DNA of 60,044 nucleotides, counting the filler. It is 4 parts of 4 records of this genome, joined end to end, with 100 filler letters (N's around TTAATTAATTAA, not from the genome) between each part and the next. Parts side by side here need not be neighbours in the genome. Positions count along the whole stretch, not along the records: positions 1 to 22,415 come from DRR723986_621; 3 more parts are not named here. One strand, 5' to 3'. This document shows positions 3,225-54,112 of the stretch, piece by piece. Each line of letters begins with the position of its first letter. The stretch's first letter is position 1. A program made the position numbers and the translations under genes. The notes beneath the pieces are model-generated. The model ran no database searches. It was not told the DNA's origin and was given only the letters and a program-made list of their open reading frames with translations.

Positions 3225-5678
3225 ATGTACCCGAATACCCCAAATCCTTCCAATTCTGGGCAAAATCCTTTTATGGTACAAAAAGAGGATGAAATTGATT
3301 TAAAAGTACTTTTATTCAATTACCTGCAATATTGGGTGTTGATAGTAGCCTGTATGTTTATAGGTGTACTGGGAGCCTTTCTTTTTAATAGATATGCTAC
3401 CAATATTTTTAAAGTGGAGTCCAGCATACTTGTGGAGGATGAAGAGCCTGCCTTGGGTATGGATTTATTTGAATCCTCAGGTTTAGGAATGCTTGGAGGC
3501 AAGAGTAATATTGAAAATGAAATCGGAATTCTGAAGTCATTTTCCTTGGCAGAAGAGGCAGTATCAGAGCTTAACCTCAATGTTCGGTATTATGAGGAGG
3601 GATTTGTGACTACAACCCAAATTTATGGAAAATTACCAATTTTGGTTACTGTGGATTGGAAGCAGCCACAACTAGTAGGAGGCAGATTTAGATTGGAGGT
3701 AATCAATGAGGATTCCTTTGAACTCTCCGTTGAAAATGATGAGTTTAAAATCTATTACCCCCATGATCCTTATTATAAAGAATTATTAGAAGATCCTGTT
3801 TCTTTAGAGAAATCTGTTTTCACCTTTGGTGAGGAGATACAAGGAGAATATTTTTCATTTACAGTTAACCAGATAGCGGCCCTTCCAGGTGATATTATTC
3901 AATTTAATTTAGTAGATACACCTTCCCTTGCTCTATTTTACAGAGAGGAGTTAGCTGTAACCCCTATTAATAAGCAAGCTTCTATTCTTTCTTTAAGCTT
4001 AGAGACTCCAGTTAGACGATTAGGCGAGGATTACATCAATAAGTTGATGGAAATGTACTTGGCGCGGGAGTTAAATGAAAAGAATAAAGCTTCGGAAAAC
4101 ACCGTAAAATTTATTGATGAGCAACTTTCTGGAATTTCTGATTCTCTGAGGTATTCAGAAAATAAGCTTCAGAAATATAGGACAGAAAATAAGGTTTTTA
4201 ATCTTTCCGAAGAAGGCTCTGTGATTTTTGAGAGAATGCAGGAGTTGGAGAAGCAAAAGGGGCAAACAGAACTAAGTTTAAAATACTATAATACCCTTAG
4301 GGATTATTTAGTCACCAATCAAACAGGTGATATGGTCGCTCCATCTGTAATGGGAGTAACTGATCCCTTATTAAATTCTCTGGTTCAAGCTTATAGTGAA
4401 TTACAGGCAGAGCAGAATCGATTATCTGCAAATTTCACTGAATTAAATCCTACTGTAAGAGAAAATACCACCAGAATTCAAAATATTAAAAAACAGCTTC
4501 AGGAAAATGTTAACTCTGCAATTAGCAATACAGAGAATACCATTGCTGATCTAAATAGTCAGATTCGTATGTTGGAAGTAGATGTGAACTCCCTTCCTGA
4601 AACAGAACGAAATCTAATAGGAATTCAACGACAGTTTACAATAAACGAGAATATTTACATTTACCTTCTTGAAAAGAAGGCTGAGGCAGAAATTACTAAA
4701 GCGGCTAATATGCCCAAGAATAGTATATTAGATTATGCTAAATCAGGACAAGAACCTGTTGCTCCAAAGCGTTCTCTTAATTTGCTGATTGGATTGATTT
4801 TAGGACTAATTCTTCCAATAGGCTTTATTACAATTAAGGACTTTTTAAATACTAAGATTGAGGATCCTAAGGAATTGGAAAATCAAATAAAGGTACCTTT
4901 GATAGGGATGATCGGGAGAAATAGTTCTGAGGATAACATTCCTGTAATGAATAATCCTAGATCAACTGTTACAGAGTCTTTCCGTTCCTTAAGGGCAGAT
5001 ATGTCCTATTTAAGTCCGCATAGAGATAATTTGACAATTCTATTCACCTCATCGATCTCAGGAGAGGGGAAAACCTTTGTATCTATAAATGTGGCTTCAG
5101 TATATGCCTTAATGGGCAAGAAGACTTTATTAATTGGTTTGGATCTTAGAAAACCAAAAATTGCTGAGGATTTTGGATTGGCAAATGATAAAGGGATGAG
5201 TACTTGTCTAAGCTCTGATATATCTTGGAGAGATGTAGTCAAATCCACTGGTCATAAGGATATGGATGTAATCTTATCCGGACCTATACCACCAAACCCA
5301 GCAGAATTGTTGCTTCAGGATAAGTTTGGGGAAATAATCAAGGAAATTAAAGCCCAGTATGATGTAGTTATTTTTGACTGTCCTCCTGTTGGGCTAGTTT
5401 CGGAAACTAAAGAACTGTTTGGCTTTGCTGATATTAGTTTCTACGTGTTCCGTCAAGGCTACTCAATGAAAGGAAATACCCAGATTTTGAATAATCTAGT
5501 AGAAAAAGGAGGGGTCTCAAAGATTTATGGCATCTTGAATGATGTGCATATTGATAAGGGCTACGGTTATGGATATGGTTATGGCTATGGCTATGGCTAT
5601 GGCTATGGAAATAATTCCTATGGATACCATGAAGAGGTTCAGCTTCCTTGGTGGAAGCGGGCATTGAGAAGGAAGTAG
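3225..5678 (+). CDS. wzc: Polysaccharide co-polymerase / tyrosine autokinase
   Basis: Two TM segments, Walker A SGEGKT, DLRKP, FDCPP and a C-terminal GY cluster. Confidence 0.95.
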   Translation: MYPNTPNPSNSGQNPFMVQKEDEIDLKVLLFNYLQYWVLIVACMFIGVLGAFLFNRYATNIFKVESSILVEDEEPALGMDLFESSGLGMLGGKSNIENEIGILKSFSLAEEAVSELNLNVRYYEEGFVTTTQIYGKLPILVTVDWKQPQLVGGRFRLEVINEDSFELSVENDEFKIYYPHDPYYKELLEDPVSLEKSVFTFGEEIQGEYFSFTVNQIAALPGDIIQFNLVDTPSLALFYREELAVTPINKQASILSLSLETPVRRLGEDYINKLMEMYLARELNEKNKASENTVKFIDEQLSGISDSLRYSENKLQKYRTENKVFNLSEEGSVIFERMQELEKQKGQTELSLKYYNTLRDYLVTNQTGDMVAPSVMGVTDPLLNSLVQAYSELQAEQNRLSANFTELNPTVRENTTRIQNIKKQLQENVNSAISNTENTIADLNSQIRMLEVDVNSLPETERNLIGIQRQFTINENIYIYLLEKKAEAEITKAANMPKNSILDYAKSGQEPVAPKRSLNLLIGLILGLILPIGFITIKDFLNTKIEDPKELENQIKVPLIGMIGRNSSEDNIPVMNNPRSTVTESFRSLRADMSYLSPHRDNLTILFTSSISGEGKTFVSINVASVYALMGKKTLLIGLDLRKPKIAEDFGLANDKGMSTCLSSDISWRDVVKSTGHKDMDVILSGPIPPNPAELLLQDKFGEIIKEIKAQYDVVIFDCPPVGLVSETKELFGFADISFYVFRQGYSMKGNTQILNNLVEKGGVSKIYGILNDVHIDKGYGYGYGYGYGYGYGYGNNSYGYHEEVQLPWWKRALRRK

Positions 5679-5700
5679 CCCTAATTCAAAATATTATCTA

Positions 5701-5732
5701 AAAATCGCAGACCAAAGCCTGCGATTTTTTTT
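5701..5732 (+). terminator. Rho-independent terminator after wzc
   Basis: AAAATCGCAG-loop-CTGCGATTTT stem followed by a T tract. Confidence 0.8.
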
Positions 5733-5744
5733 ACTTTTAACGAA

Positions 5745-6038
5745 TTCAAGTTGTCCTGGTTCAAGTTGTCCTTCTTCTCCAGAAGCAGGACTTTTATATA
5801 ACTAAAAGAAAGCCGAAACCTTAATTATCCCCCAACCTTAAATCTAGACCCTTCGCCCAACTTCATCATTCTTCATTCGATTTTCTTCATTAAAACTTCC
5901 ACCAAGGTCTGTGTCCTCACAGACTATTATCCTTATCGGTTAGGAGATGCCATAGCGGATATACGGTTTTTAAATGTAGTCTTAGCTGTTAAGAAAATTG
6001 GCTATCTCGCGAAGGATTGAGCGAGATCCGCCAATTTT
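5745..6038. repeat. Cluster of REP-like hairpins left of the IS110
   Basis: GTCCTTCTTCTCCAGAAGCAGGAC 5768-5791, GGTCTGTG-TCCT-CACAGACT 5906-5925, long hairpin 5994-6038. Confidence 0.65.
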
Positions 6039-6300
6039 TATTCAAAGACAATTCTCAAAAATCAAATCGGTCCACAGCCATTCAACCTTTCTACTCTTTT
6101 TTCCTATTCGAAGTATAGGCTCGGGCCAAGGCTTTTGGATACTTTTAGTCTCAAAAGTTTTAGAGAAATAAACTTGCTCTTTTGCATTCATCAGAATTGA
6201 GAAATTGCGTTGAATAAATTTCTTTATCGTAGGTCACCTAACCGTTTCCATCTTTTGCCTGCCCGTATTCTAAGGTTAAAGCAAGAAGAACTTCAGTTTA

Positions 6301-7296
6301 TTATGCAGCATATCTTAAGGTATCCACATAATTGGAATTTCTGTTGACAACAGCAAAAGCCCTAGCCAGAAGTTTGTTTCTTATGATGTTAAGCGTACCC
6401 ATTTTGCTTTTTCCTTCACCGATCCTCTTCTGGTAGTAATTCTTCATTTCTGTACTGTGTTGAATAGCTGTGCCTGCACACAGGGTCAAAAGTGTTTTAA
6501 TCCTCTTATTTGCCAACTTACTCGTTTTCGTCCTTCCGTTAAATATACCAGACTGGTTTGGGAACGGTGCTGTTCCTGCGTAACTGGCAAACTTCCTCCA
6601 GTTACTGAACAACGTAAAACCCTTCGTCAAAACGATAAGAGCAAGAGCAGTTTGCGGCCCTATACCTTTAACAGAGTTAATCAGCTTATATTGATTCAGC
6701 AAAAGTTCTTCTTTATGTAAATGTTTATCTATTTCCCTTTCAACTGTTTCGATCTGCTTGTCCAAGCAAGCGATCACTGTGGCATGGGATTTTTGATAGA
6801 CTTTTAATTTGTTCTTGGAGACGATAGTTTCATATTCATTGAGGCGAGTTGTGAATGCCGCTCTATCTTTTACAAGCCGCTCTCTGTAATTAAAGAGCTT
6901 TTTTAAATCTTGAATGGTCTGGGATGGAAGAACAGTGGGTATAATCTTCTCTTGCTTTTCGTAGAGATATTCAGCTATATCCTTTGAATCTGCCTTATCT
7001 GACTTGCCTCTTCTTATCCCTAAGGATCGCTTTAATTCCAGTCCTGAGATAATATGAAATGGGAGTGATTGCTTCTCGAAAAACAAAGCAAGTTCTGAAG
7101 AATAAATTCCTGTAGATTCGAACCCGAAAAGCAATTCTTCAGCGAGAACCAATCCGGAATTATCCATAACCCATTCCACCAGCTCCTGATAACCCTGTTC
7201 ATTATTATCGAAGATAGCATGGCATTGGTTGATTTTCAGATAAGCATCAAGGGTAGATTTACTTACATCGATTCCGATAAGTGATTTGAATTTCAT
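6301..7296 (-). CDS. IS110-family transposase/recombinase
   Basis: DEDD RuvC-like residues (GIDVSK, FESTG, KSDKAD), Transposase_20 motif SVKGIGPQTA, and QSG serine. Confidence 0.95.
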   Translation of the reverse strand: MKFKSLIGIDVSKSTLDAYLKINQCHAIFDNNEQGYQELVEWVMDNSGLVLAEELLFGFESTGIYSSELALFFEKQSLPFHIISGLELKRSLGIRRGKSDKADSKDIAEYLYEKQEKIIPTVLPSQTIQDLKKLFNYRERLVKDRAAFTTRLNEYETIVSKNKLKVYQKSHATVIACLDKQIETVEREIDKHLHKEELLLNQYKLINSVKGIGPQTALALIVLTKGFTLFSNWRKFASYAGTAPFPNQSGIFNGRTKTSKLANKRIKTLLTLCAGTAIQHSTEMKNYYQKRIGEGKSKMGTLNIIRNKLLARAFAVVNRNSNYVDTLRYAA

Positions 7297-7321
7297 AATT
7301 TAGATGTTGTAGTTTAACAAA

Positions 7322-7505
7322 TGAGAGTTGCGGAAACTAAAACCTTTACAAGGCCTTAAAGCCTAAAATTCTAACTGGTTATTGGCAACTCAATAAAGAA
7401 TGGGGACTGATACGGGCAAGAGGCCACTAACCTACGCCGTGGTAAAGTTCACCCCATTCTTTTTTAATTTATTGAATATCTGAGTCACTTATAAATCAGA
7501 AGTAT
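7322..7505 (-). ncRNA. Putative IS110 bridge RNA (5' hairpin, target-binding loop, donor-binding loop)
   Basis: Stems 7479-7483/7496-7500; 7395-7405/7452-7462 with inner 7421-7423/7431-7433; 7325-7331/7385-7391 with inner 7351-7354/7361-7364. Loop segments match flanks and element ends. Confidence 0.78.
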
Positions 7506-7594
7506 CTTAAACCAAAATTTCCTTAATAATTACTATCTGTAAACCTAAAGGCCGCGGCGGGGCTCCGGGCTTTCGTCTCCGCATGAGGATTCCG

Positions 7595-8048
7595 GGCCAG
7601 CGCTGCTGGGCGAAAATATTCGAATAAAGCCTAGGGTTGAAACTAGGCTATTGAAAAGCGGAGCCAAATCCTGGCCAATTTGTCGACGTTTTTATGAGGC
7701 TTCTTCCTGCTCCTGTTGTCCTGCTTCTCCAGAAGATGGACAGGATCTCCTAGTTGGTGCAAGTCTTCTTGACTTGTACCTATGTCAATGCAGTCTTCAG
7801 ACTGTCAAACAACAAACTTAATTATTTCCAATCCTGAATCCATATCATAGGATTTGCAATCCAACATGTATTTTTATTATCATCTTATGCCATAGTCCAA
7901 TTAATTTCTCGTTTCCATCTTGCTGGCACTGGAGCCTGGTTTCCAACTAATGTTCTTAGGCCAGCGCTGTTGAATTAAATAATTCTAAACCCAGGGTTGC
8001 GTCGTGCCTCCTTACCCTGGGCTAAAATATTGCCGCCCCATTCAGGGC
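7595..8048. repeat. Cluster of REP-like hairpins right of the IS110
   Basis: GTCCTGCTTCTCCAGAAGATGGAC 7718-7741, GGTGCAAGTC-TTCTT-GACTTGTACC 7756-7780, CAGTC-TTCA-GACTG 7791-7804, CCCAGGG...CCCTGGG 7990-8021, GCCCCATTCAGGGC 8035-8048. Confidence 0.65.
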
Positions 8049-8427
8049 TATTTCTCAGAATCAAAATGCGCAACTGATCTATCGTTTTTATGGTACTTTT
8101 CCATAATTGCATATATCACCGAGGTAGGGGCAAATCAACATTCGTCCGATTTAGAAAACGATGATTTAACCTCTACGAAGGTTATTTTGTGTGTCGGGAG
8201 AAAATGACAAGTTCCGCACCATTATCTATTCATACACATAATGGGGGCCATCTCCACAGTAAATACCTGAAAAAAGTTCAGTAAACCAAGCTCATATAGT
8301 ATGGCTACCTTTTTGATAAGTTGTGATTTCTTGCAAATAGTCTGACACTTCAAAATACAGTATTTTGTATATAAAAATACTGTTGAAAATTAGGATGAAA
8401 AATGAGTACAAAAACTACTCACTTCTG

Positions 8428-8435
8428 TATATTTG
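8428..8435 (+). promoter_or_regulatory. Bacteroidota -7 promoter element (TATATTTG) upstream of the manC operon
   Basis: Exact TAnnTTTG consensus; implies a leader of about 255 nt. Confidence 0.5.
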
Positions 8436-8698
8436 CAATCAAAATGGCTTAAAAAAGTACTCAAAATTTTAATTTTGGTATTATTTGATTCGATTTTTTT
8501 AAAATTCTGTAATTGAATTGCTTTAAGGGAACTTCTAGTGATTCGGCTGCTAAGAACTATTATCGGGTGACATATAAAGTTATATAGCTTTATTATTAGT
8601 TCAATAATGGGACTGAAAGGGCGAAGCTGTGAGAATTTTATGGGATAATATTCATTATCAACTTATTAATACATTCTAATTAATCAAAGTTTTATTTA

Positions 8699-9697
8699 AT
8701 GGTAATTTTTAACGTCATCCTTTCCGGAGGAGTAGGCTCCAGACTTTGGCCTCTCTCCCGCAAATCTCAACCCAAGCAGTATTTACCAATTTTTGAAGGG
8801 GAAACGCTTTTTCAAAAGACCATAAGCAGAAATGCCGTTTTTTGTGATGAGGTAATGGTGGTAGGTAATTGTGATAATTACGAATTGTCAAGAAAGGACC
8901 TCACTTCCGCTGGGATATCTACTTATGTAGAGATTATCGAGGCTTGCCCTAGAAATACAGCAGCAGCTATTGCTTTTGCAGCCTTTGCAGCTCAGCCCGA
9001 GGATATTTTATTTGTTACACCTTCTGATCATCTGATAGAGTCTGGAAATAACTACCAGCTGGCAGTAGATAGAGCTATTCAACTGGCAAAAAATGGTTTT
9101 ATAGTTACCTTTGGACTGAAGCCAACCAAACCTGAAACAGGTTTTGGCTACATAGAGGCAGAAGGAGAAGAGGTAAAAGGATTTCGTGAAAAACCGAATT
9201 TGGAAACAGCTGAGGGATTTTTGAAAAGTGGAAACTTTTACTGGAATTCAGGAATGTTCTGTTTTCAGGCAGGAGTATACCTAGAGGAATTGAAAGCCTT
9301 TGAACCTGAAGTCTATGCTTCTTCAAAAATAGCATTTGATGGAGCGAAGGAAGGTAAACTGGATTTTGAACTATCCATGAACATCCCTTCCATTTCAGTG
9401 GATTATGCTGTCATGGAAAATACCAAAAAAATCAAAGTTGTTCCCTCAGAATTTGCTTGGTCAGATATGGGTTCTTTTGAATCTATTTATGATCACTTCA
9501 AAAAGCAAGGACATACTGTAGACTCCAAAGGCAATATGGTAATAGGAACGGATCTCCATACTGAATTTTTAGGCATGAAAAATACCATGTTGATTCAAAC
9601 AGCAGATGCTATTTTAGTTCTCAAGAAGGATAATGCACAGGATGTGAAGAAGGTGTTTGAGAAATTGGAGAGGGAGAGACCGGACTTGGTTTCATGA
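8699..9697 (+). CDS. manC: Mannose-1-phosphate guanylyltransferase
   Basis: GGVGSRLWPLSR, RNTAAAI, PSDH, FREKP, WNSGMF and WSDMG motifs. Confidence 0.95.
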   Translation: MVIFNVILSGGVGSRLWPLSRKSQPKQYLPIFEGETLFQKTISRNAVFCDEVMVVGNCDNYELSRKDLTSAGISTYVEIIEACPRNTAAAIAFAAFAAQPEDILFVTPSDHLIESGNNYQLAVDRAIQLAKNGFIVTFGLKPTKPETGFGYIEAEGEEVKGFREKPNLETAEGFLKSGNFYWNSGMFCFQAGVYLEELKAFEPEVYASSKIAFDGAKEGKLDFELSMNIPSISVDYAVMENTKKIKVVPSEFAWSDMGSFESIYDHFKKQGHTVDSKGNMVIGTDLHTEFLGMKNTMLIQTADAILVLKKDNAQDVKKVFEKLERERPDLVS

Positions 9698-17331: not shown

Positions 17332-18096
17332 TTGAATAATATTAATATACAAGACCTCACCTCGCTAGCCAAAGAAGCCTCTTTAGCTGCTGGTAAAGCC
17401 ATTTTAGAAATTTATAATTCAGCTGTTTTTGGTATAGAAATGAAAGGAGATAATTCTCCTTTGACTTTAGCCGATCAGGCTGCCCACAAGGTGATTGTTA
17501 GCTTTTTAGAAAAGACTGACTTACCTATTTTATCCGAGGAGGGAAGGGATATCCCTTATGAAGAGAGAAAGGACTGGGAGTATTTCTGGATGGTTGATCC
17601 ATTAGACGGTACAAAAGAATTTATTAAGAAGAATGGTGAGTTCACAGTTAATATAGCCTTGATTCATAAGGGCAAAGCTATTATGGGAGTAGTCTATGCT
17701 CCTGTATTAGAATGGCTTTATTGGGGAAATTGGGAAGAAGGTGCCTGGAAGCAAGAATCAAATTCAGATCCAGTTAAGTTAGAGAAAGCTAATTCGCAGG
17801 AAATTAAAACCGTAGTAGCAAGTAGATCCCATCTGAGTAAGGAAACCCAAGCCTTTATTGATCAATATCCAGGAGCAGAAGTAATCTCCATGGGTTCCTC
17901 TTTAAAATTTATGTTGGTAGCCGAAGGAAAAGCTCAAATTTATCCTCGGTTTGCTCCTACTATGGAATGGGATACAGCTGCTGCTCAAGGCGTGATTGAA
18001 GCAATTGGAGGAAGCGTGGAGATATACCCAGAATTAATTCCTTTAAAATATAATAGAGAAAATATGTTGAATAGTTGGTTCATTGTACATAATTGA
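17332..18096 (+). CDS. cysQ: 3'(2'),5'-bisphosphate nucleotidase
   Basis: SPLTLAD, LSEE, VDPLDGTKEF and MEWDTAA motifs; TTG start. Confidence 0.93.
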   Translation: MNNINIQDLTSLAKEASLAAGKAILEIYNSAVFGIEMKGDNSPLTLADQAAHKVIVSFLEKTDLPILSEEGRDIPYEERKDWEYFWMVDPLDGTKEFIKKNGEFTVNIALIHKGKAIMGVVYAPVLEWLYWGNWEEGAWKQESNSDPVKLEKANSQEIKTVVASRSHLSKETQAFIDQYPGAEVISMGSSLKFMLVAEGKAQIYPRFAPTMEWDTAAAQGVIEAIGGSVEIYPELIPLKYNRENMLNSWFIVHN

Positions 18097-19420
18097 AATT
18101 ATTTTGAAAACTATTTTAAAAAATAGTAAATCTCCTATTGACGAAAACACAAAGGAAGTTGTAAAGAAATCAAAAAGTACAATCATAGTAAAAATTATTG
18201 GTTTAATTGCAGGTTTTTTAGTAAGTGTGTTTTTAGGTAGGACCTTAGGAGTTGAAGGCTTAGGTGTATTAAATCTGTCTTTAAAGATAATAGCTACTGT
18301 CATGGTTTTAAGTTTGTTAGGTTTGAATACAGTTGTTTTAAAAAATGTTTCAATTTCATTTGAAAATAAACAATTTGATAATGTGGCTAATCATTTATTT
18401 TCTGCTCTTTTTATTGTTATCCCGTTTACTATTTTATTATCAATTGGGATTTTATTATCTTCAAACTGGCTTAGTTTTTCGATATTTAAAACAGAAAAAT
18501 TATATTATCCATTAGTAATTTCATCAGGCGCTTTGATATTTCAGGTATTGGCAAGAATATATTCAGCAGGAATCAATGGATTTAGAAAAATTTGGCAAAG
18601 TAATTTAACCAATGAAACACTTAGTTTTTGCGTTATTCTTTGTGGGCTTATTGTTTTTCATTATGGTGGAATACCTATAAATTTGATTAATGTTAGTTTA
18701 CTTTTCGCTTTTAGTAGATTTTGTGTATTTCTCACTGTATTTATCTATTGGAATCAAATATTTATTTTTAGAGGTAAAAGAAAATTTGTGGGAAGGGAAA
18801 TGTTAATAGTTGGATTACCATTACTTCTAGTTTCAGCTAGTTCTCTAATTTCCAATAATACTGATTCCATTATGTTAGGGTGGTTGAGTTCTGCAAATGA
18901 AGTTGGTATTTACGTGGTAGCATCGAAATTAGGCTTAATGACTTCATTTTTTCACATAATTACGGTATCTACACTTTCTCCAAAGATTGCTTCCCTTTTT
19001 GGTTTGGGAGAATTGAAAAAGATGGAAATAATGGTACAAAAAGTCACATTGTTTTTGCTTTTAATAGCAATTTTAAGTACAATATTTTTCGCTATATTTG
19101 GAAAAAGTATACTAAGTTTTTGGGGAGACGAATTTGTTCAAGCATATATCCCACTTTTAATAATATCTATAGGTCAATTATTTAATATAGGGACAGGAGC
19201 TACTGGTATAATATTAATGATGACTGGATTTGAAAAAATTATTGGAAAAATAACTCTTAGTTTTGCTTTATTTAATATTTTATTAAATTTTATTCTTGTT
19301 CCAAAATTTGGAGCTATTGGTGCAGCTATTGCAACATCAATTTCATTGATATTTGAAAATATATTAAAATATCATTTTGTTAGATCAAAACTTTCAATAA
19401 GTACTATCAAAGGGATTTAA
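18083..19420 (+). CDS. wzx: Wzx-type flippase
   Basis: Multi-TM MOP-family pattern (LGRTLG, DSIMLG, VGIY, FGAIGAAIAT); exact start uncertain. Confidence 0.85.
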   Translation: MYIIEIILKTILKNSKSPIDENTKEVVKKSKSTIIVKIIGLIAGFLVSVFLGRTLGVEGLGVLNLSLKIIATVMVLSLLGLNTVVLKNVSISFENKQFDNVANHLFSALFIVIPFTILLSIGILLSSNWLSFSIFKTEKLYYPLVISSGALIFQVLARIYSAGINGFRKIWQSNLTNETLSFCVILCGLIVFHYGGIPINLINVSLLFAFSRFCVFLTVFIYWNQIFIFRGKRKFVGREMLIVGLPLLLVSASSLISNNTDSIMLGWLSSANEVGIYVVASKLGLMTSFFHIITVSTLSPKIASLFGLGELKKMEIMVQKVTLFLLLIAILSTIFFAIFGKSILSFWGDEFVQAYIPLLIISIGQLFNIGTGATGIILMMTGFEKIIGKITLSFALFNILLNFILVPKFGAIGAAIATSISLIFENILKYHFVRSKLSISTIKGI

Positions 19421-19425
19421 TAATT

Positions 19426-20379
19426 GTGAGACAAATTACACCCATATTTATAATTTCACTTCCTCGAAGTGGCTCTACATTGCTTCAACGATTGTTGATA
19501 AATCATTCCAAAATCAGTTCTATTTCTGAACCCTGGATTTTGCTTCCTCTTTTAAATTTGTATAATTTAGATAAAAAGGGAAATGCAATTTATAATGATT
19601 CATTTTCTTCAAAGGCTGTATATGAATTAATTAATAGATTATCTAATAAAGAATATTCTTATTTTGAATATGTAAATAAGCTAGTCACTTCAATTTATTC
19701 TAATCTTTCAGGCCCTGATTCAATTTATTTTATTGATAAAACTCCTCGATATTATCATATTATCAAGGATATTCATCATGTTTTTCCAAATGCTAAATTT
19801 ATCTTTCTTACAAGACACCCTCTTGGTGTTATTAATTCGGTTATGAAAACTTGGTTTTATGGTACTTTTCCAAAAACACAAGATCATTCTTTTGACATTG
19901 ACCATGGTTTTCAAGCGCTATTTCAAGGTTATGAATTATTAAAGGATAGGAGTATTCTTGTCAGGTACGAGGACCTTATTAATAATTCTGATATAGAATT
20001 AAACAAGATTTTCGATTATTTAAATCTTCCTTATCTTAAAAGTGATGATATTAATTTATTTTCTAATAAGTTGGAAGGTGGATTTGGAGATAAAACTGGT
20101 AAGAAGAAATATACTAATATTGATTCAAAGTCAATCAAAGGTTGGGAAATATATTTTAATTCATTTTTTGGTAGTTCTATAGCAAATAAAATCTATAATA
20201 AATTTTCTGTTGAAGAAAGATTTTTTTTTAATTTTAATAAACCTATTTTTAAGTTCCCATGGTATAAATTCGGTTTATTTATTTATTTCGATTATTATTT
20301 TTCTATTCTTATTTCCAAAACTAGTATATGGTATTATTTCGTTAGCATAAAAGACTACGTTAAATCCTTTCTAAAATAA
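19426..20379 (+). CDS. Sulfotransferase
   Basis: 5'-PSB motif PRSGSTLL, DKTP, 3'-PB-like RHPLGVINS and VRYEDL. Confidence 0.88.
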   Translation: MRQITPIFIISLPRSGSTLLQRLLINHSKISSISEPWILLPLLNLYNLDKKGNAIYNDSFSSKAVYELINRLSNKEYSYFEYVNKLVTSIYSNLSGPDSIYFIDKTPRYYHIIKDIHHVFPNAKFIFLTRHPLGVINSVMKTWFYGTFPKTQDHSFDIDHGFQALFQGYELLKDRSILVRYEDLINNSDIELNKIFDYLNLPYLKSDDINLFSNKLEGGFGDKTGKKKYTNIDSKSIKGWEIYFNSFFGSSIANKIYNKFSVEERFFFNFNKPIFKFPWYKFGLFIYFDYYFSILISKTSIWYYFVSIKDYVKSFLK

Positions 20380-20381
20380 AC

Positions 20382-21575
20382 ATGAATTATATTATAAATA
20401 AGAGACTATTTAATGTATTATTTTATCTATTAATTTTATCTATTCCACTAACTAGTATACAGTTAACTTCTTTATCTATATCTCCCAATACCTTATTGAT
20501 TTTAGTATTTTCAATACTTCTTTTCATTAATTTTATTCTAAATGGATTTACGATTTCTTCTCTTGCTTTAAAAATTTCTGTAATTTCATTTCTGTATTTT
20601 TTTGTTTTATTATTCCGATTTGATATTTATTTTTCTGATTTTTCTGTGATTACTTCGTATTTAATTAAATATTTGGCATTTATTTCTATCTTTATTTATT
20701 TTAATTATAATGATCACTATAAAACTTTAATTATCTTGTTAATAATTAATCTATTTATAGTCAGTATTGGTTTTGGTCTCATACAATATGGAATTATAGA
20801 TCCAGTTCGAACTCAAAATGCGAGAGCTGGATTTGAGGAGTTTAGAACAACAGGGATTCTTAGTAATTTTGGTGATATTACTATTATAAATTCAATTGTT
20901 TTTCTTTTAATTTTATTTCCTAAATTGTTTAAGAATAATTTTCTTTATTTATTTTTTATTTTATTAACTATTTTTGAAACTTTTATTGTTTTGTTTTTTT
21001 CACAAAGTAGAAATTTACTTTTGTCTCTAATTATGGCTTTATTGTTTAAATTTTTTATATTATTCTTAAGGATTAAAAATATATTTTTAAAAATATTTGT
21101 ATATATATTGTTACTGTTTGTGGCTACAGTTTTACTCTTATATATTCCATTAGATGTTATTGGTAATTCTGATTTTTATGATACTGGCCGTATTACTCAA
21201 TATTCTCGTGCTTTCGATCAATTTTTTAGTAATCCAATAATTGGAAATGGTTTTGGTTACTATCAATATATTTATAATTCTGATTGGGATGTACATAATT
21301 TGTTTATTAATTCGCTTCAAAATACTGGTTTTATAGGTTTGGTTTTTCTATTTATGATTTCAATCTATCCTTTTATTAAATTATTGAAATATTTAATTAA
21401 TAGGTACAAATTTTTAAATGATTCCTTAAATTTAAATTACTTGGAATTCTATTTGATTTCCTTTTTTATTGTTCTTTTAGCAGTTCAATTTTTTCCTGGT
21501 CATAATTCAATTGTATTTTGGTCATATTTAGGGATGTTTGTCTCTATTTCATTAAAGAATAAATATGTTATTTAG
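20382..21575 (+). CDS. Wzy polymerase / O-antigen ligase-like membrane protein
   Basis: Many TM segments with SQSR, PIIGNGFG and HN motifs. Confidence 0.8.
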   Translation: MNYIINKRLFNVLFYLLILSIPLTSIQLTSLSISPNTLLILVFSILLFINFILNGFTISSLALKISVISFLYFFVLLFRFDIYFSDFSVITSYLIKYLAFISIFIYFNYNDHYKTLIILLIINLFIVSIGFGLIQYGIIDPVRTQNARAGFEEFRTTGILSNFGDITIINSIVFLLILFPKLFKNNFLYLFFILLTIFETFIVLFFSQSRNLLLSLIMALLFKFFILFLRIKNIFLKIFVYILLLFVATVLLLYIPLDVIGNSDFYDTGRITQYSRAFDQFFSNPIIGNGFGYYQYIYNSDWDVHNLFINSLQNTGFIGLVFLFMISIYPFIKLLKYLINRYKFLNDSLNLNYLEFYLISFFIVLLAVQFFPGHNSIVFWSYLGMFVSISLKNKYVI

Positions 21576-22386
21576 TTTAATTACCGTAACCTATAATGCT
21601 GAATCTAGTATCCGTAAGACTTTGGATAGTGTAACAAATCAATCATATAATGATTTTGAATTAATTATTATTGATGGTAATTCTAATGATAACACTTTAG
21701 AAATTATTAAGTCATATAGAGATTTGGTTTCTATTGTAATTAGTGAACCAGATTCTGGTATTTATGATGCTATGAATAAAGGGATTCGGTTAGCAAAAGG
21801 TGATTGGCTTTTCTTTCTAAATTCTGGTGATTATTTTTATAATTTTGATGTTCTGTCTAAATTAAGTAGTGAAATAAATCTTAATAAAAATCAAAATTTT
21901 CAACTTTTTTATGGTAAATCTATATTGTTTAGTGATCTTTTAAATATTTCTCTTATCAAAGGTAGGGAAATATCTATTAAAGATATGTATTTTGATATGC
22001 CAATTATTCACCAATCTATATTTTTTTCGAGGCAATCTTTTTTAACTATAAAAGAATTTGATATTTCTTTTAAAAGAAGTGCAGATCATAATTGGTTAGT
22101 ACAATTTTTTATTTCTGGAGGTAAGGCTAAATTCATAGATCAAATTATTTCTTATTATGAAATTGAAAGTTTTTCTTCCAATTCTATATGGATTCGTAAA
22201 TATGAGAAGCTTAAGATTTCATTAAAATATTTTAATATTAGAGTTAAATCTATAGCTATAATAAAATTTAGTTATTATATTATTCGTGCGTTTTTGTTTA
22301 ATTTTTTTGTTCCAAGAAATTTTAAAAATCATATATCTAGGAAAAGGTTTAATAATAAAAAAAAACTTACCAAAGCTAATTTATAA
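21565..22386 (+). CDS. GT2 glycosyltransferase (WcaE-like)
   Basis: IIIDGNSND, SEPDSGIYDAMNKG and FLNSGD motifs. Confidence 0.9.
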   Translation: MLFSLITVTYNAESSIRKTLDSVTNQSYNDFELIIIDGNSNDNTLEIIKSYRDLVSIVISEPDSGIYDAMNKGIRLAKGDWLFFLNSGDYFYNFDVLSKLSSEINLNKNQNFQLFYGKSILFSDLLNISLIKGREISIKDMYFDMPIIHQSIFFSRQSFLTIKEFDISFKRSADHNWLVQFFISGGKAKFIDQIISYYEIESFSSNSIWIRKYEKLKISLKYFNIRVKSIAIIKFSYYIIRAFLFNFFVPRNFKNHISRKRFNNKKKLTKANL

Positions 22387-22415
22387 ATATTAAAATGTCT
22401 AAGGTTTTATTGATG

Positions 22416-22515
22416 NNNNNNNNNNNNNNNNNNNNNNNNNNNNNNNNNNNNNNNNNNNNTTAATTAATTAANNNNNNNNNNNNNNNNNNNNNNNNNNNNN
22501 NNNNNNNNNNNNNNN
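22416..22515. other. Artificial contig linker
   Basis: N-run, TTAATTAATTAA (stops in six frames), N-run; composition changes across it. Confidence 0.97.
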
Positions 22516-37732: not shown

Positions 37733-37832
37733 NNNNNNNNNNNNNNNNNNNNNNNNNNNNNNNNNNNNNNNNNNNNTTAATTAATTAANNNNNNNNNNNN
37801 NNNNNNNNNNNNNNNNNNNNNNNNNNNNNNNN
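37733..37832. other. Artificial contig linker
   Basis: N-run, TTAATTAATTAA, N-run. Confidence 0.97.
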
Positions 37833-54012: not shown

Positions 54013-54112
54013 NNNNNNNNNNNNNNNNNNNNNNNNNNNNNNNNNNNNNNNNNNNNTTAATTAATTAANNNNNNNNNNNNNNNNNNNNNNNNNNNNNNNN
54101 NNNNNNNNNNNN
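54013..54112. other. Artificial contig linker
   Basis: N-run, TTAATTAATTAA, N-run. Confidence 0.97.

Follow-up and report, generated by a model that had tools for sequence, protein, structure and literature searches.

Previous studies of the IS110 group describe insertion sequences with a long left end and a short right end, and by covariance models 85.7% of the elements of this group are expected to have a bridge RNA (Durrant et al. 2024, PMC11208160). In the case of IS621, as that report presents it, identical CT flanks lie at both ends of the element and are read by all four guides. The structural account of IS621 (Hiraizumi et al. 2024, PMC11208158) lists the catalytic residues of the transposase and describes a handshake, in which bases adjoining the right target guide bind donor positions 6-7 once the strands have been exchanged; handshake bases that pair with the cognate target block the exchange, according to the same account.

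An intact IS110-group insertion sequence of an Algoriphagus-like bacterium occupies positions 6265..7551 on the minus strand of the window, by which we mean the whole 60,044-nt stretch of DNA analysed; all features given below lie on the minus strand unless a plus sign is shown. These positions include both copies of a shared C; with that base taken once the element measures 1,286 bp, and it is very probably an intact bridge-RNA-guided recombinase system of the IS621 kind. Its recombinase gene (6301..7296) is an intact, uninterrupted ORF of 331 amino acids, identified by Pfam, NCBIfam and alignment to solved transposases. The protein contains the Pfam domains DEDD_Tnp_IS110 (PF01548, residues 7-153) and Transposase_20 (PF02371, residues 204-289) and scores 161 bits against the NCBIfam model NF033542, "IS110 family RNA-guided transposase", which has a cut-off of 140. 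Residues 6-318 align to the ISCro4 transposase (9t56) with an E-value of 2.4e-15, the best match to the sequence of a solved structure, and to the IS621 transposase (8wt6) with an E-value of 1.7e-12. In the alignment, Asp10, Glu60, Asp100 and Asp103 occupy the catalytic DEDD columns of IS621, and Ser249, the candidate nucleophile, occupies the column of the catalytic Ser. The N-terminal DEDD RuvC-like domain and the C-terminal Tnp domain with its candidate Ser nucleophile are those by which the IS110 family is recognized.

The non-coding left end, which encodes the predicted bridge RNA, is 255 nt long (7297..7550), against 35 nt for the non-coding right end (6266..6300), and this follows the IS110-group pattern. 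Because the empty sites described below join 7552 to 6264 via a single C, the ends of the element fall at 7550/7551 and 6265/6266. The only duplicated base is this C (7551 and 6265), which is preceded by G on the target side and by A on the donor side. At the left end the core position pair is GC (7551..7552), whose G is position 8 of the target itself, and at the right end it is AC (6265..6266), whose A is donor position 8; the C of each pair is the shared base, and no CT core of the IS621 type is present. The final TTAGAAT-A of the right end supplies donor positions 1-8, and the joined ends read TTAGAAT-AC-CTTTA. All relatives of the element start with CCTTTAG and finish with TAGAAT followed by NC. 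An earlier sequence-only reading had placed the ends near 6268 and 7551, and the true ends lie no more than 3 nt from these positions; the donor junction that it proposed, TTAGAA|CCTTTA, is ruled out by the empty sites and gives way to TTAGAAT-AC-CTTTA. Its remark that no core dinucleotide is duplicated stands as far as two bases are concerned, yet a single C is duplicated. No second copy of the element exists in the window, which has no repeats of 40 nt or more, and a distant blastn search of a plasmid collection returned no match to it.

Relatives were collected in several ways. Scanning one genome per species with the protein yielded 32 loci, mostly in Algoriphagus, Cyclobacterium and Echinicola, with more distant ones in Saprospiraceae and Flavobacteriaceae, and a metagenome scan gave 37 further loci. 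At the DNA level the RNA region has matches in 29 of the 401 genomes in the family of G001, a genome that carries a multi-copy relative, and the conserved scaffold pattern of the target loop was found at 77 places in 103 sources.

The predicted RNA contains two units, each built of a stem, an internal loop and a hairpin. The target-binding unit (7398..7459) has an outer stem formed by GAAUGGGG (7459-7452) and CCCCAUUC (7405-7398) and an inner hairpin at 7421-7433, and the donor-binding unit (7325..7391) has an outer stem formed by GAGUUGC (7391-7385) and GCAACUC (7331-7325) and an inner hairpin at 7351-7364. Folded alone, 7395-7462 reaches -26.2 kcal/mol (z -3.24, with none of 200 shuffles as good) and 7322-7394 reaches -18.9 kcal/mol (z -2.57, with one of 200 as good). 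We aligned 55 distinct RNA regions with MAFFT, ran RNAalifold and counted a four-helix model on the alignment. RNAalifold recovers the outer stem of the target loop and both inner hairpins in the 55 relatives. Under the four-helix model, 88.7% of the cells are paired compared with 74.3% in shuffles, 21 of the 24 pairs have changes on both sides, and none of 500 shuffles, which ignore relatedness, attains even one of the five measures. With the partner strand shifted by 1-3 columns, the pairing falls to 34-55%. The outer stem of the target loop is paired in 94.2% of the cells, both bases having changed in 8 of 10 pairs, and its inner hairpin in 100%, with changes on both sides in 3 of 3 pairs; the inner hairpin of the donor loop is paired in 94.5%, and its outer stem, in which distant rows are misaligned by MAFFT, in 70.9%, with all seven pairs changed on both sides. 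The two units claimed in the sequence-only reading are therefore borne out by their separate folds, which beat the shuffles, and by compensatory changes in the four helices of the predicted RNA. The 5' hairpin that it also claimed is not supported: the fold of 7470-7512 (-4.9 kcal/mol, z -0.07) is matched by 85 of 200 shuffles. The fold of the whole left end as one molecule (z -1.9 and -2.7) is uninformative; in it the guide segments pair with each other, and the outer stem of the target loop is its sole part that agrees with the comparative model. Rfam 15, searched over 5500-8500 with E-values up to 1, returned nothing in the left end and only weak unrelated matches elsewhere. We also observed that a G-rich hairpin module, consisting of two G6 runs and then a TTGTGGATAA-like motif, is conserved in the left ends of many relatives, where it follows the -7 box and precedes the target loop (L018, L042, L043, L048-L053, L058 and L076); the window's element has no such module.

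Both strands of the second loop match the ends of the element. The left donor guide UUAGAAU (7368..7374) equals donor positions 1-7 at all seven bases, as had been noted from the right end TTAGAAT (6273-6267). The right donor guide UAAAG-GU (7342..7348) complements the A-C-CTTTA that spans the joined ends; the complementarity of UAAAGG (7348-7343) to CCTTTA (7551-7546) is confirmed, and together with the core the guide pairs with seven of seven contiguous bases (ACCTTTA). An 8-nt match, AACCTTTA, proposed earlier for the circularised junction is withdrawn, as it assumed the wrong junction and the real joined ends give seven contiguous bases. Among relatives, the variable bases of the left donor guide (TT, AT or GT before AGAA; GAAT or GAAAT) are those of the right end in every one of the 24 distinct donor sets, and in some clades the right donor guide is 2 nt longer (GA, GT) and matches the left end there, which is not the case in the window's clade. 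Opposite donor positions 8-9 (AC) the left donor guide of the window's clade has UU, a mismatch that a U.G wobble could soften at position 9.

The first loop was compared with the flanks of the insertion. The left target guide UACCACGGC (7436..7444) has the sense of the target top strand and covers the left target half (7552..7559) and the shared C. Its ACCACGG (7443-7437) matches the left flank GCCGCGG (7558-7552) at 5 of 7 positions, exactly as the sequence-only reading had it, and with the core the guide matches its own flank CGCCGCGGC at 6 of 9. In the right target guide UGCCCGUAU (7410..7418), UGCCC pairs with GGGCA of the target and G pairs with the shared C; the claimed complementarity of the whole segment (7418-7410) to the right junction ATACGGGCA (6268-6260) is exact at 9 of 9 positions. 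The complementary 9-mer occurs at just these two places in the 60-kb window, with a chance expectation of 0.5, and the match alone is weak because at least two hits were obtained in 9 of 100 shuffles. The 3' UAU of this guide (7412-7410) matches ATA of the right end and not the target, which makes it a handshake guide, with U pairing donor A8 and AU pairing donor A6-T7, and leaves the target without "TA". The preferred target predicted from the guides is thus (U)ACCACGG-C-GGGCA; the ACCACGG...GGGCA part of the target proposed earlier holds, whereas its "TA" belongs to the right end of the element. A search of the window for the predicted 13-mer with up to three mismatches gave 41 hits against 21 expected, an excess judged uninformative because nearly all hits lie in the GC-rich contigs beyond 22.5 kb.

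Empty sites were found in two related genomes. In G513, both flanks of the window's element are joined through one C at two sites in tandem, which read ...GCCACGG-C-GGGCAGG... (more fully ...CCCCGCCACGG-C-GGGCAGGCAAAAGATGG...) and agree with the guide-predicted ACCACGG-C-GGGCA at 12 of 13 positions. G001 has three unoccupied copies of the target of its own element, whose guides read GCCACGGC and, complemented, C-TGGCA; two of the sites read ...GCCACGG-C-TGGCAGG... and one has an extra C. The latter (L033, G001:C1:35667-35690) reads …CCACGG-CC-TGGCAGG… and could be repeat variation or the scar of an imprecise excision. The 8-nt guide core ACCACGGC of the window's element agrees with the empty site in G513 (GCCACGGC) at 7 of 8 positions. 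Four sequencing runs (X1-X4) contain contigs with the element that differ at no more than 11 positions over 6257-7561, a comparison that concerns presence only. The flanks of these copies diverge at 6257 and at 7561 (X1, X3) or 7554 (X2), which indicates other insertion sites that share about 8-10 target bases per side, and the right target half GGGCAGGC (6257..6264) is common to the insertion sites of the near-identical copies. The left flank of the 99%-identical copy in X2 reads TACCACGG-C and matches the left guide at 9 of 9 positions. The flanks of the window's own copy are covered by no X1-X4 contig, and no joint was reported in these runs, one odd X3 record excepted. The sequencing runs listed with the element include no RNA run, and X1-X4 gave neither RNA evidence nor a circle junction. 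Within the RNA region, the sole difference of the near-identical copies is at 7350, where all four runs have C for A (+); this turns a U of the RNA into G, at the margin of the donor loop's inner hairpin.

The guides change together with the flanks, which is the opposite of the outcome named as refuting the sequence-only reading. We assembled 35 distinct insertion events with both junctions readable, which comprise 30 distinct guide pairs. The left target guide matches its own flank at 5.80 of 7 positions on average and other flanks at 2.85 (sum 174; permutation mean 88, maximum 127), and for the variable part of the right target guide the averages are 4.47 of 6 with its own flank and 2.14 with other flanks (sum 134; permutation mean 67, maximum 98). 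None of 20,000 permutations, in which relatedness is ignored, attains the observed sum for either guide, and across the 30 guide pairs and the empty sites the two strands of the first loop follow both halves of the insertion site. Some rows fit poorly (L050 at 2 of 7, L053 at 3 of 7), and the right junctions of L073 and L074 were probably mis-set by the anchor. The shared C is guide position 8 in some elements and 9 in others, and L001, L010 and L017 have one additional base between the left-half match and the C; this 1-nt shift in the register of the left guide and the extra base in three relatives show that the pairing rules are less tidy than the model. The comparative data, namely guide/flank covariation and the empty sites, are the strongest evidence against chance.

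Position 8 was scored in 31 of the 35 events, with L020, L073, L074 and L098 left out as the anchor found no shared C in them. Target and donor have the same base at this position in 5 of 31 events, on which count a two-base core common to donor and target was rejected. The right guide's base equals that of the donor in 30 of 31 events and that of the target in 6, while the left guide's base equals that of the target in 23 and that of the donor in 3. The handshake AU agrees with donor AT in 27 of 31 events. These position-8 counts set the clade apart from the rule of identical CT flanks in IS621. The left target guide may read position 8 on the target and a 3-nt handshake segment of the right guide may read it on the donor, as the base counts suggest. 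Our tentative proposal, to which we give a little less than an even chance, is that in this Cyclobacteriaceae clade only the C must match between donor and target, position 8 being read separately and the natural cores mostly differing. If this were true of the chemistry, the recombinases of the clade would have a looser core rule than IS621.

Bacteroidota promoters have the consensus TAnnTTTG at -7 and TTTG near -33, as given in PMC7366714. The left end of the element starts with C-CTT-TAGGTTTA, in which TAGGTTTA (7540..7547) is a predicted -7 box with one mismatch to TAnnTTTG; in most relatives the box reads TAGGTTTG or TAGATTTG. The right end contains a -33-like CTTG (6282..6285), whose conserved TTG is located 20 nt upstream of the -7 box only once the ends are joined, and in the integrated state the flank has no TTG at the 20-nt distance. 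Joining the ends would therefore assemble a predicted promoter of the Bacteroidota -33/-7 type. The departures of the window's element from the consensus are A for the final G in the -7 box and CTTG instead of TTTG at -33. Joined ends were reconstructed with one C for 35 distinct pairs of right and left ends; TAnnTTT[G/A] is present in 29 of them, and TTG lies exactly 20 nt upstream of it in 28. Our literature search found no paper combining "TAnnTTTG" and "IS110".

Taken together, these features suggest the following course for the element, in which transcription, the circle, promoter activity and the chemistry of strand exchange are modelled on IS621. The element would excise as a circle with the junction TTAGAAT-AC-CTTTAGG, which would place a promoter with a -33 TTG and a -7 TAnnTTTG ahead of the RNA and the recombinase gene. 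The 255-nt left end would yield an RNA of about 200 nt with two internal loops. In the target loop, UACCACGGC (7444-7436), having the sense of the left target half and C, would pair with the target bottom strand, and UAU of the right guide, which matches ATA of the right end, would form a handshake that receives the donor strand after exchange. In the donor loop, UUAGAAU would correspond to the last 7 nt before the AC of the right end, and UAAAG-GU would pair with AC-CTTTA across the joined ends. The DEDD/Ser recombinase would then exchange strands at the shared C between the junction and sites like ACCACGG-C-GGGCA, which belong to a repeat family of Algoriphagus genomes.

The same matches could arise in a recombinase guided by its protein alone, in which they would be sub-terminal repeats recognized by the protein or a site preference, and the left end would be a regulatory 5' leader. 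The fold of the whole left end, which pairs the guide segments together, and the fact that no transcript was observed can be cited for such a leader, yet the flanks lie outside the element and the loop bases nevertheless change with them across 30 guide pairs, while the stems are kept by compensatory changes and the loops are free to vary. The strand logic also speaks for an RNA, since it fits the RNA-DNA pairing solved for IS621 as described in PMC11208158, where the 5' strand of the loop has the same sense and the 3' strand is complementary, and NCBIfam assigns the protein to an RNA-guided IS110 equivalog. We consider guidance by protein very improbable.

A second alternative accepts the guide RNA and holds that the element, while well built, is an inactive relic in its genome, for which its single copy in the window, the match of only 5 of 7 between the left guide and its own flank, the mismatch in the -7 box and the lack of a circle junction among the X1-X4 contigs can be cited. 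A relic is harder to reconcile with an uninterrupted ORF in which all catalytic residues are present, with the presence in other samples of copies that are 99% identical or more and occupy two or more different flanking contexts, and with a related species that has at least nine identical copies; we regard it as improbable, and the element has probably been mobile recently. The reading that we prefer, an intact IS110 element with a bridge RNA, agrees with the sequence-only reading and is carried by the protein family, the catalytic residues, the covariation of structure and guides, the empty sites and the near-identical copies elsewhere. The order of the guides (LTG, RTG, LDG, RDG) and the strand logic of IS621, both claimed earlier, also hold for the left-end RNA.

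The surroundings of the element are repetitive. Its flanks, 7552-8150 and 5690-6264, belong to repeat families across Algoriphagus; among 123 genomes of this genus, 78 have matches to the former and 69 to the latter, and the target site sits within the repeat unit. The repeats form tandem arrays; for example, copies recur about every 530 bp in G515, and G513 has two units at a distance of 657 bp. Within the repeated left flank, 7990-8049 (+) has a weak match to the Rfam family Acido-Lenti-1 RNA (26 bits against a gathering score of 37, E-value 0.004). Polysaccharide-type genes are located at 3225-5678 and 8699-9697, and the element is in a 3-kb gap of this region; 18000-22400 is very AT-rich (GC 0.2-0.3) with back-to-back ORFs, and together with the neighboring polysaccharide-type genes it looks like a surface-polysaccharide gene cluster. 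The GC content of the window is ~0.37 over 1-18 kb, 0.22 over 18-22.4 kb and ~0.6 after 22.5 kb; the stretch thus looks like a string of several contigs, and the GC-rich contigs may come from another organism than the Algoriphagus-like first contig that bears the element. The segments 22416-22515, 37733-37832 and 54013-54112 each consist of two runs of 44 N with 12 bases between them.

The element at 6265-7551 is a clean, fresh example of the known two-loop bridge RNA system and no new system, and it leaves the understanding of the mechanism unchanged; its clade and the predicted RNA may already be included in the supplementary lists of Durrant et al. 2024. What the element contributes is a well-documented natural case from Bacteroidota, complete with guides, ends, an empty site and further places of insertion, and accompanied by about 30 relatives whose guides differ. 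Its small departures from the E. coli model, namely a one-base shared core, a three-base segment keyed to the donor and a predicted split promoter of the phylum's type, could inform the choice of orthologues for genome engineering in Bacteroidota, and if the looser core rule is true, the recombinases of the clade with their predicted native split promoter would be candidates for programmable insertion there.

Compared with IS621 of E. coli, as far as PMC11208160 and PMC11208158 describe it, the window's element likewise combines DEDD RuvC-like and Ser Tnp domains, and its recombinase is ~25% identical to that of IS621 by eye from the alignment. Both elements have a long left end and a short right end, an RNA in the left end with the target loop before the donor loop, and the same strand logic, in which LTG and LDG are of top-strand sense and RTG and RDG are complementary to that strand. 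They also share the 7+2 nt left guide, the two-base AU handshake for donor A6-T7, and a target in a genomic repeat, and the promoter predicted for the window's element is divided between its two ends like that of IS621. On the same description of IS621, there are differences at the core, which is a shared CT in IS621 and a single shared C in the window's element, and at position 8, where target and donor differ in 26 of 31 events, unlike in IS621. The right target guide has 5 nt in the window's element and 4 in IS621, the left donor guide of the window's clade has no core match, unlike that of IS621, and the split promoter, of the sigma-70 type in IS621, has the Bacteroidota -33/-7 form in the prediction for the window's element. 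The ISCro4 transposase (PDB 9t56) belongs to the same family and was compared by protein alone. The IS1111-group elements with a seekRNA or bridge RNA, as PMC11208160 presents them, use the same recombinase family and the same RNA-guided principle; they have the RNA downstream of the gene and long sub-terminal inverted repeats, whereas the window's element has its RNA upstream of the gene and a right end of just 35 nt.
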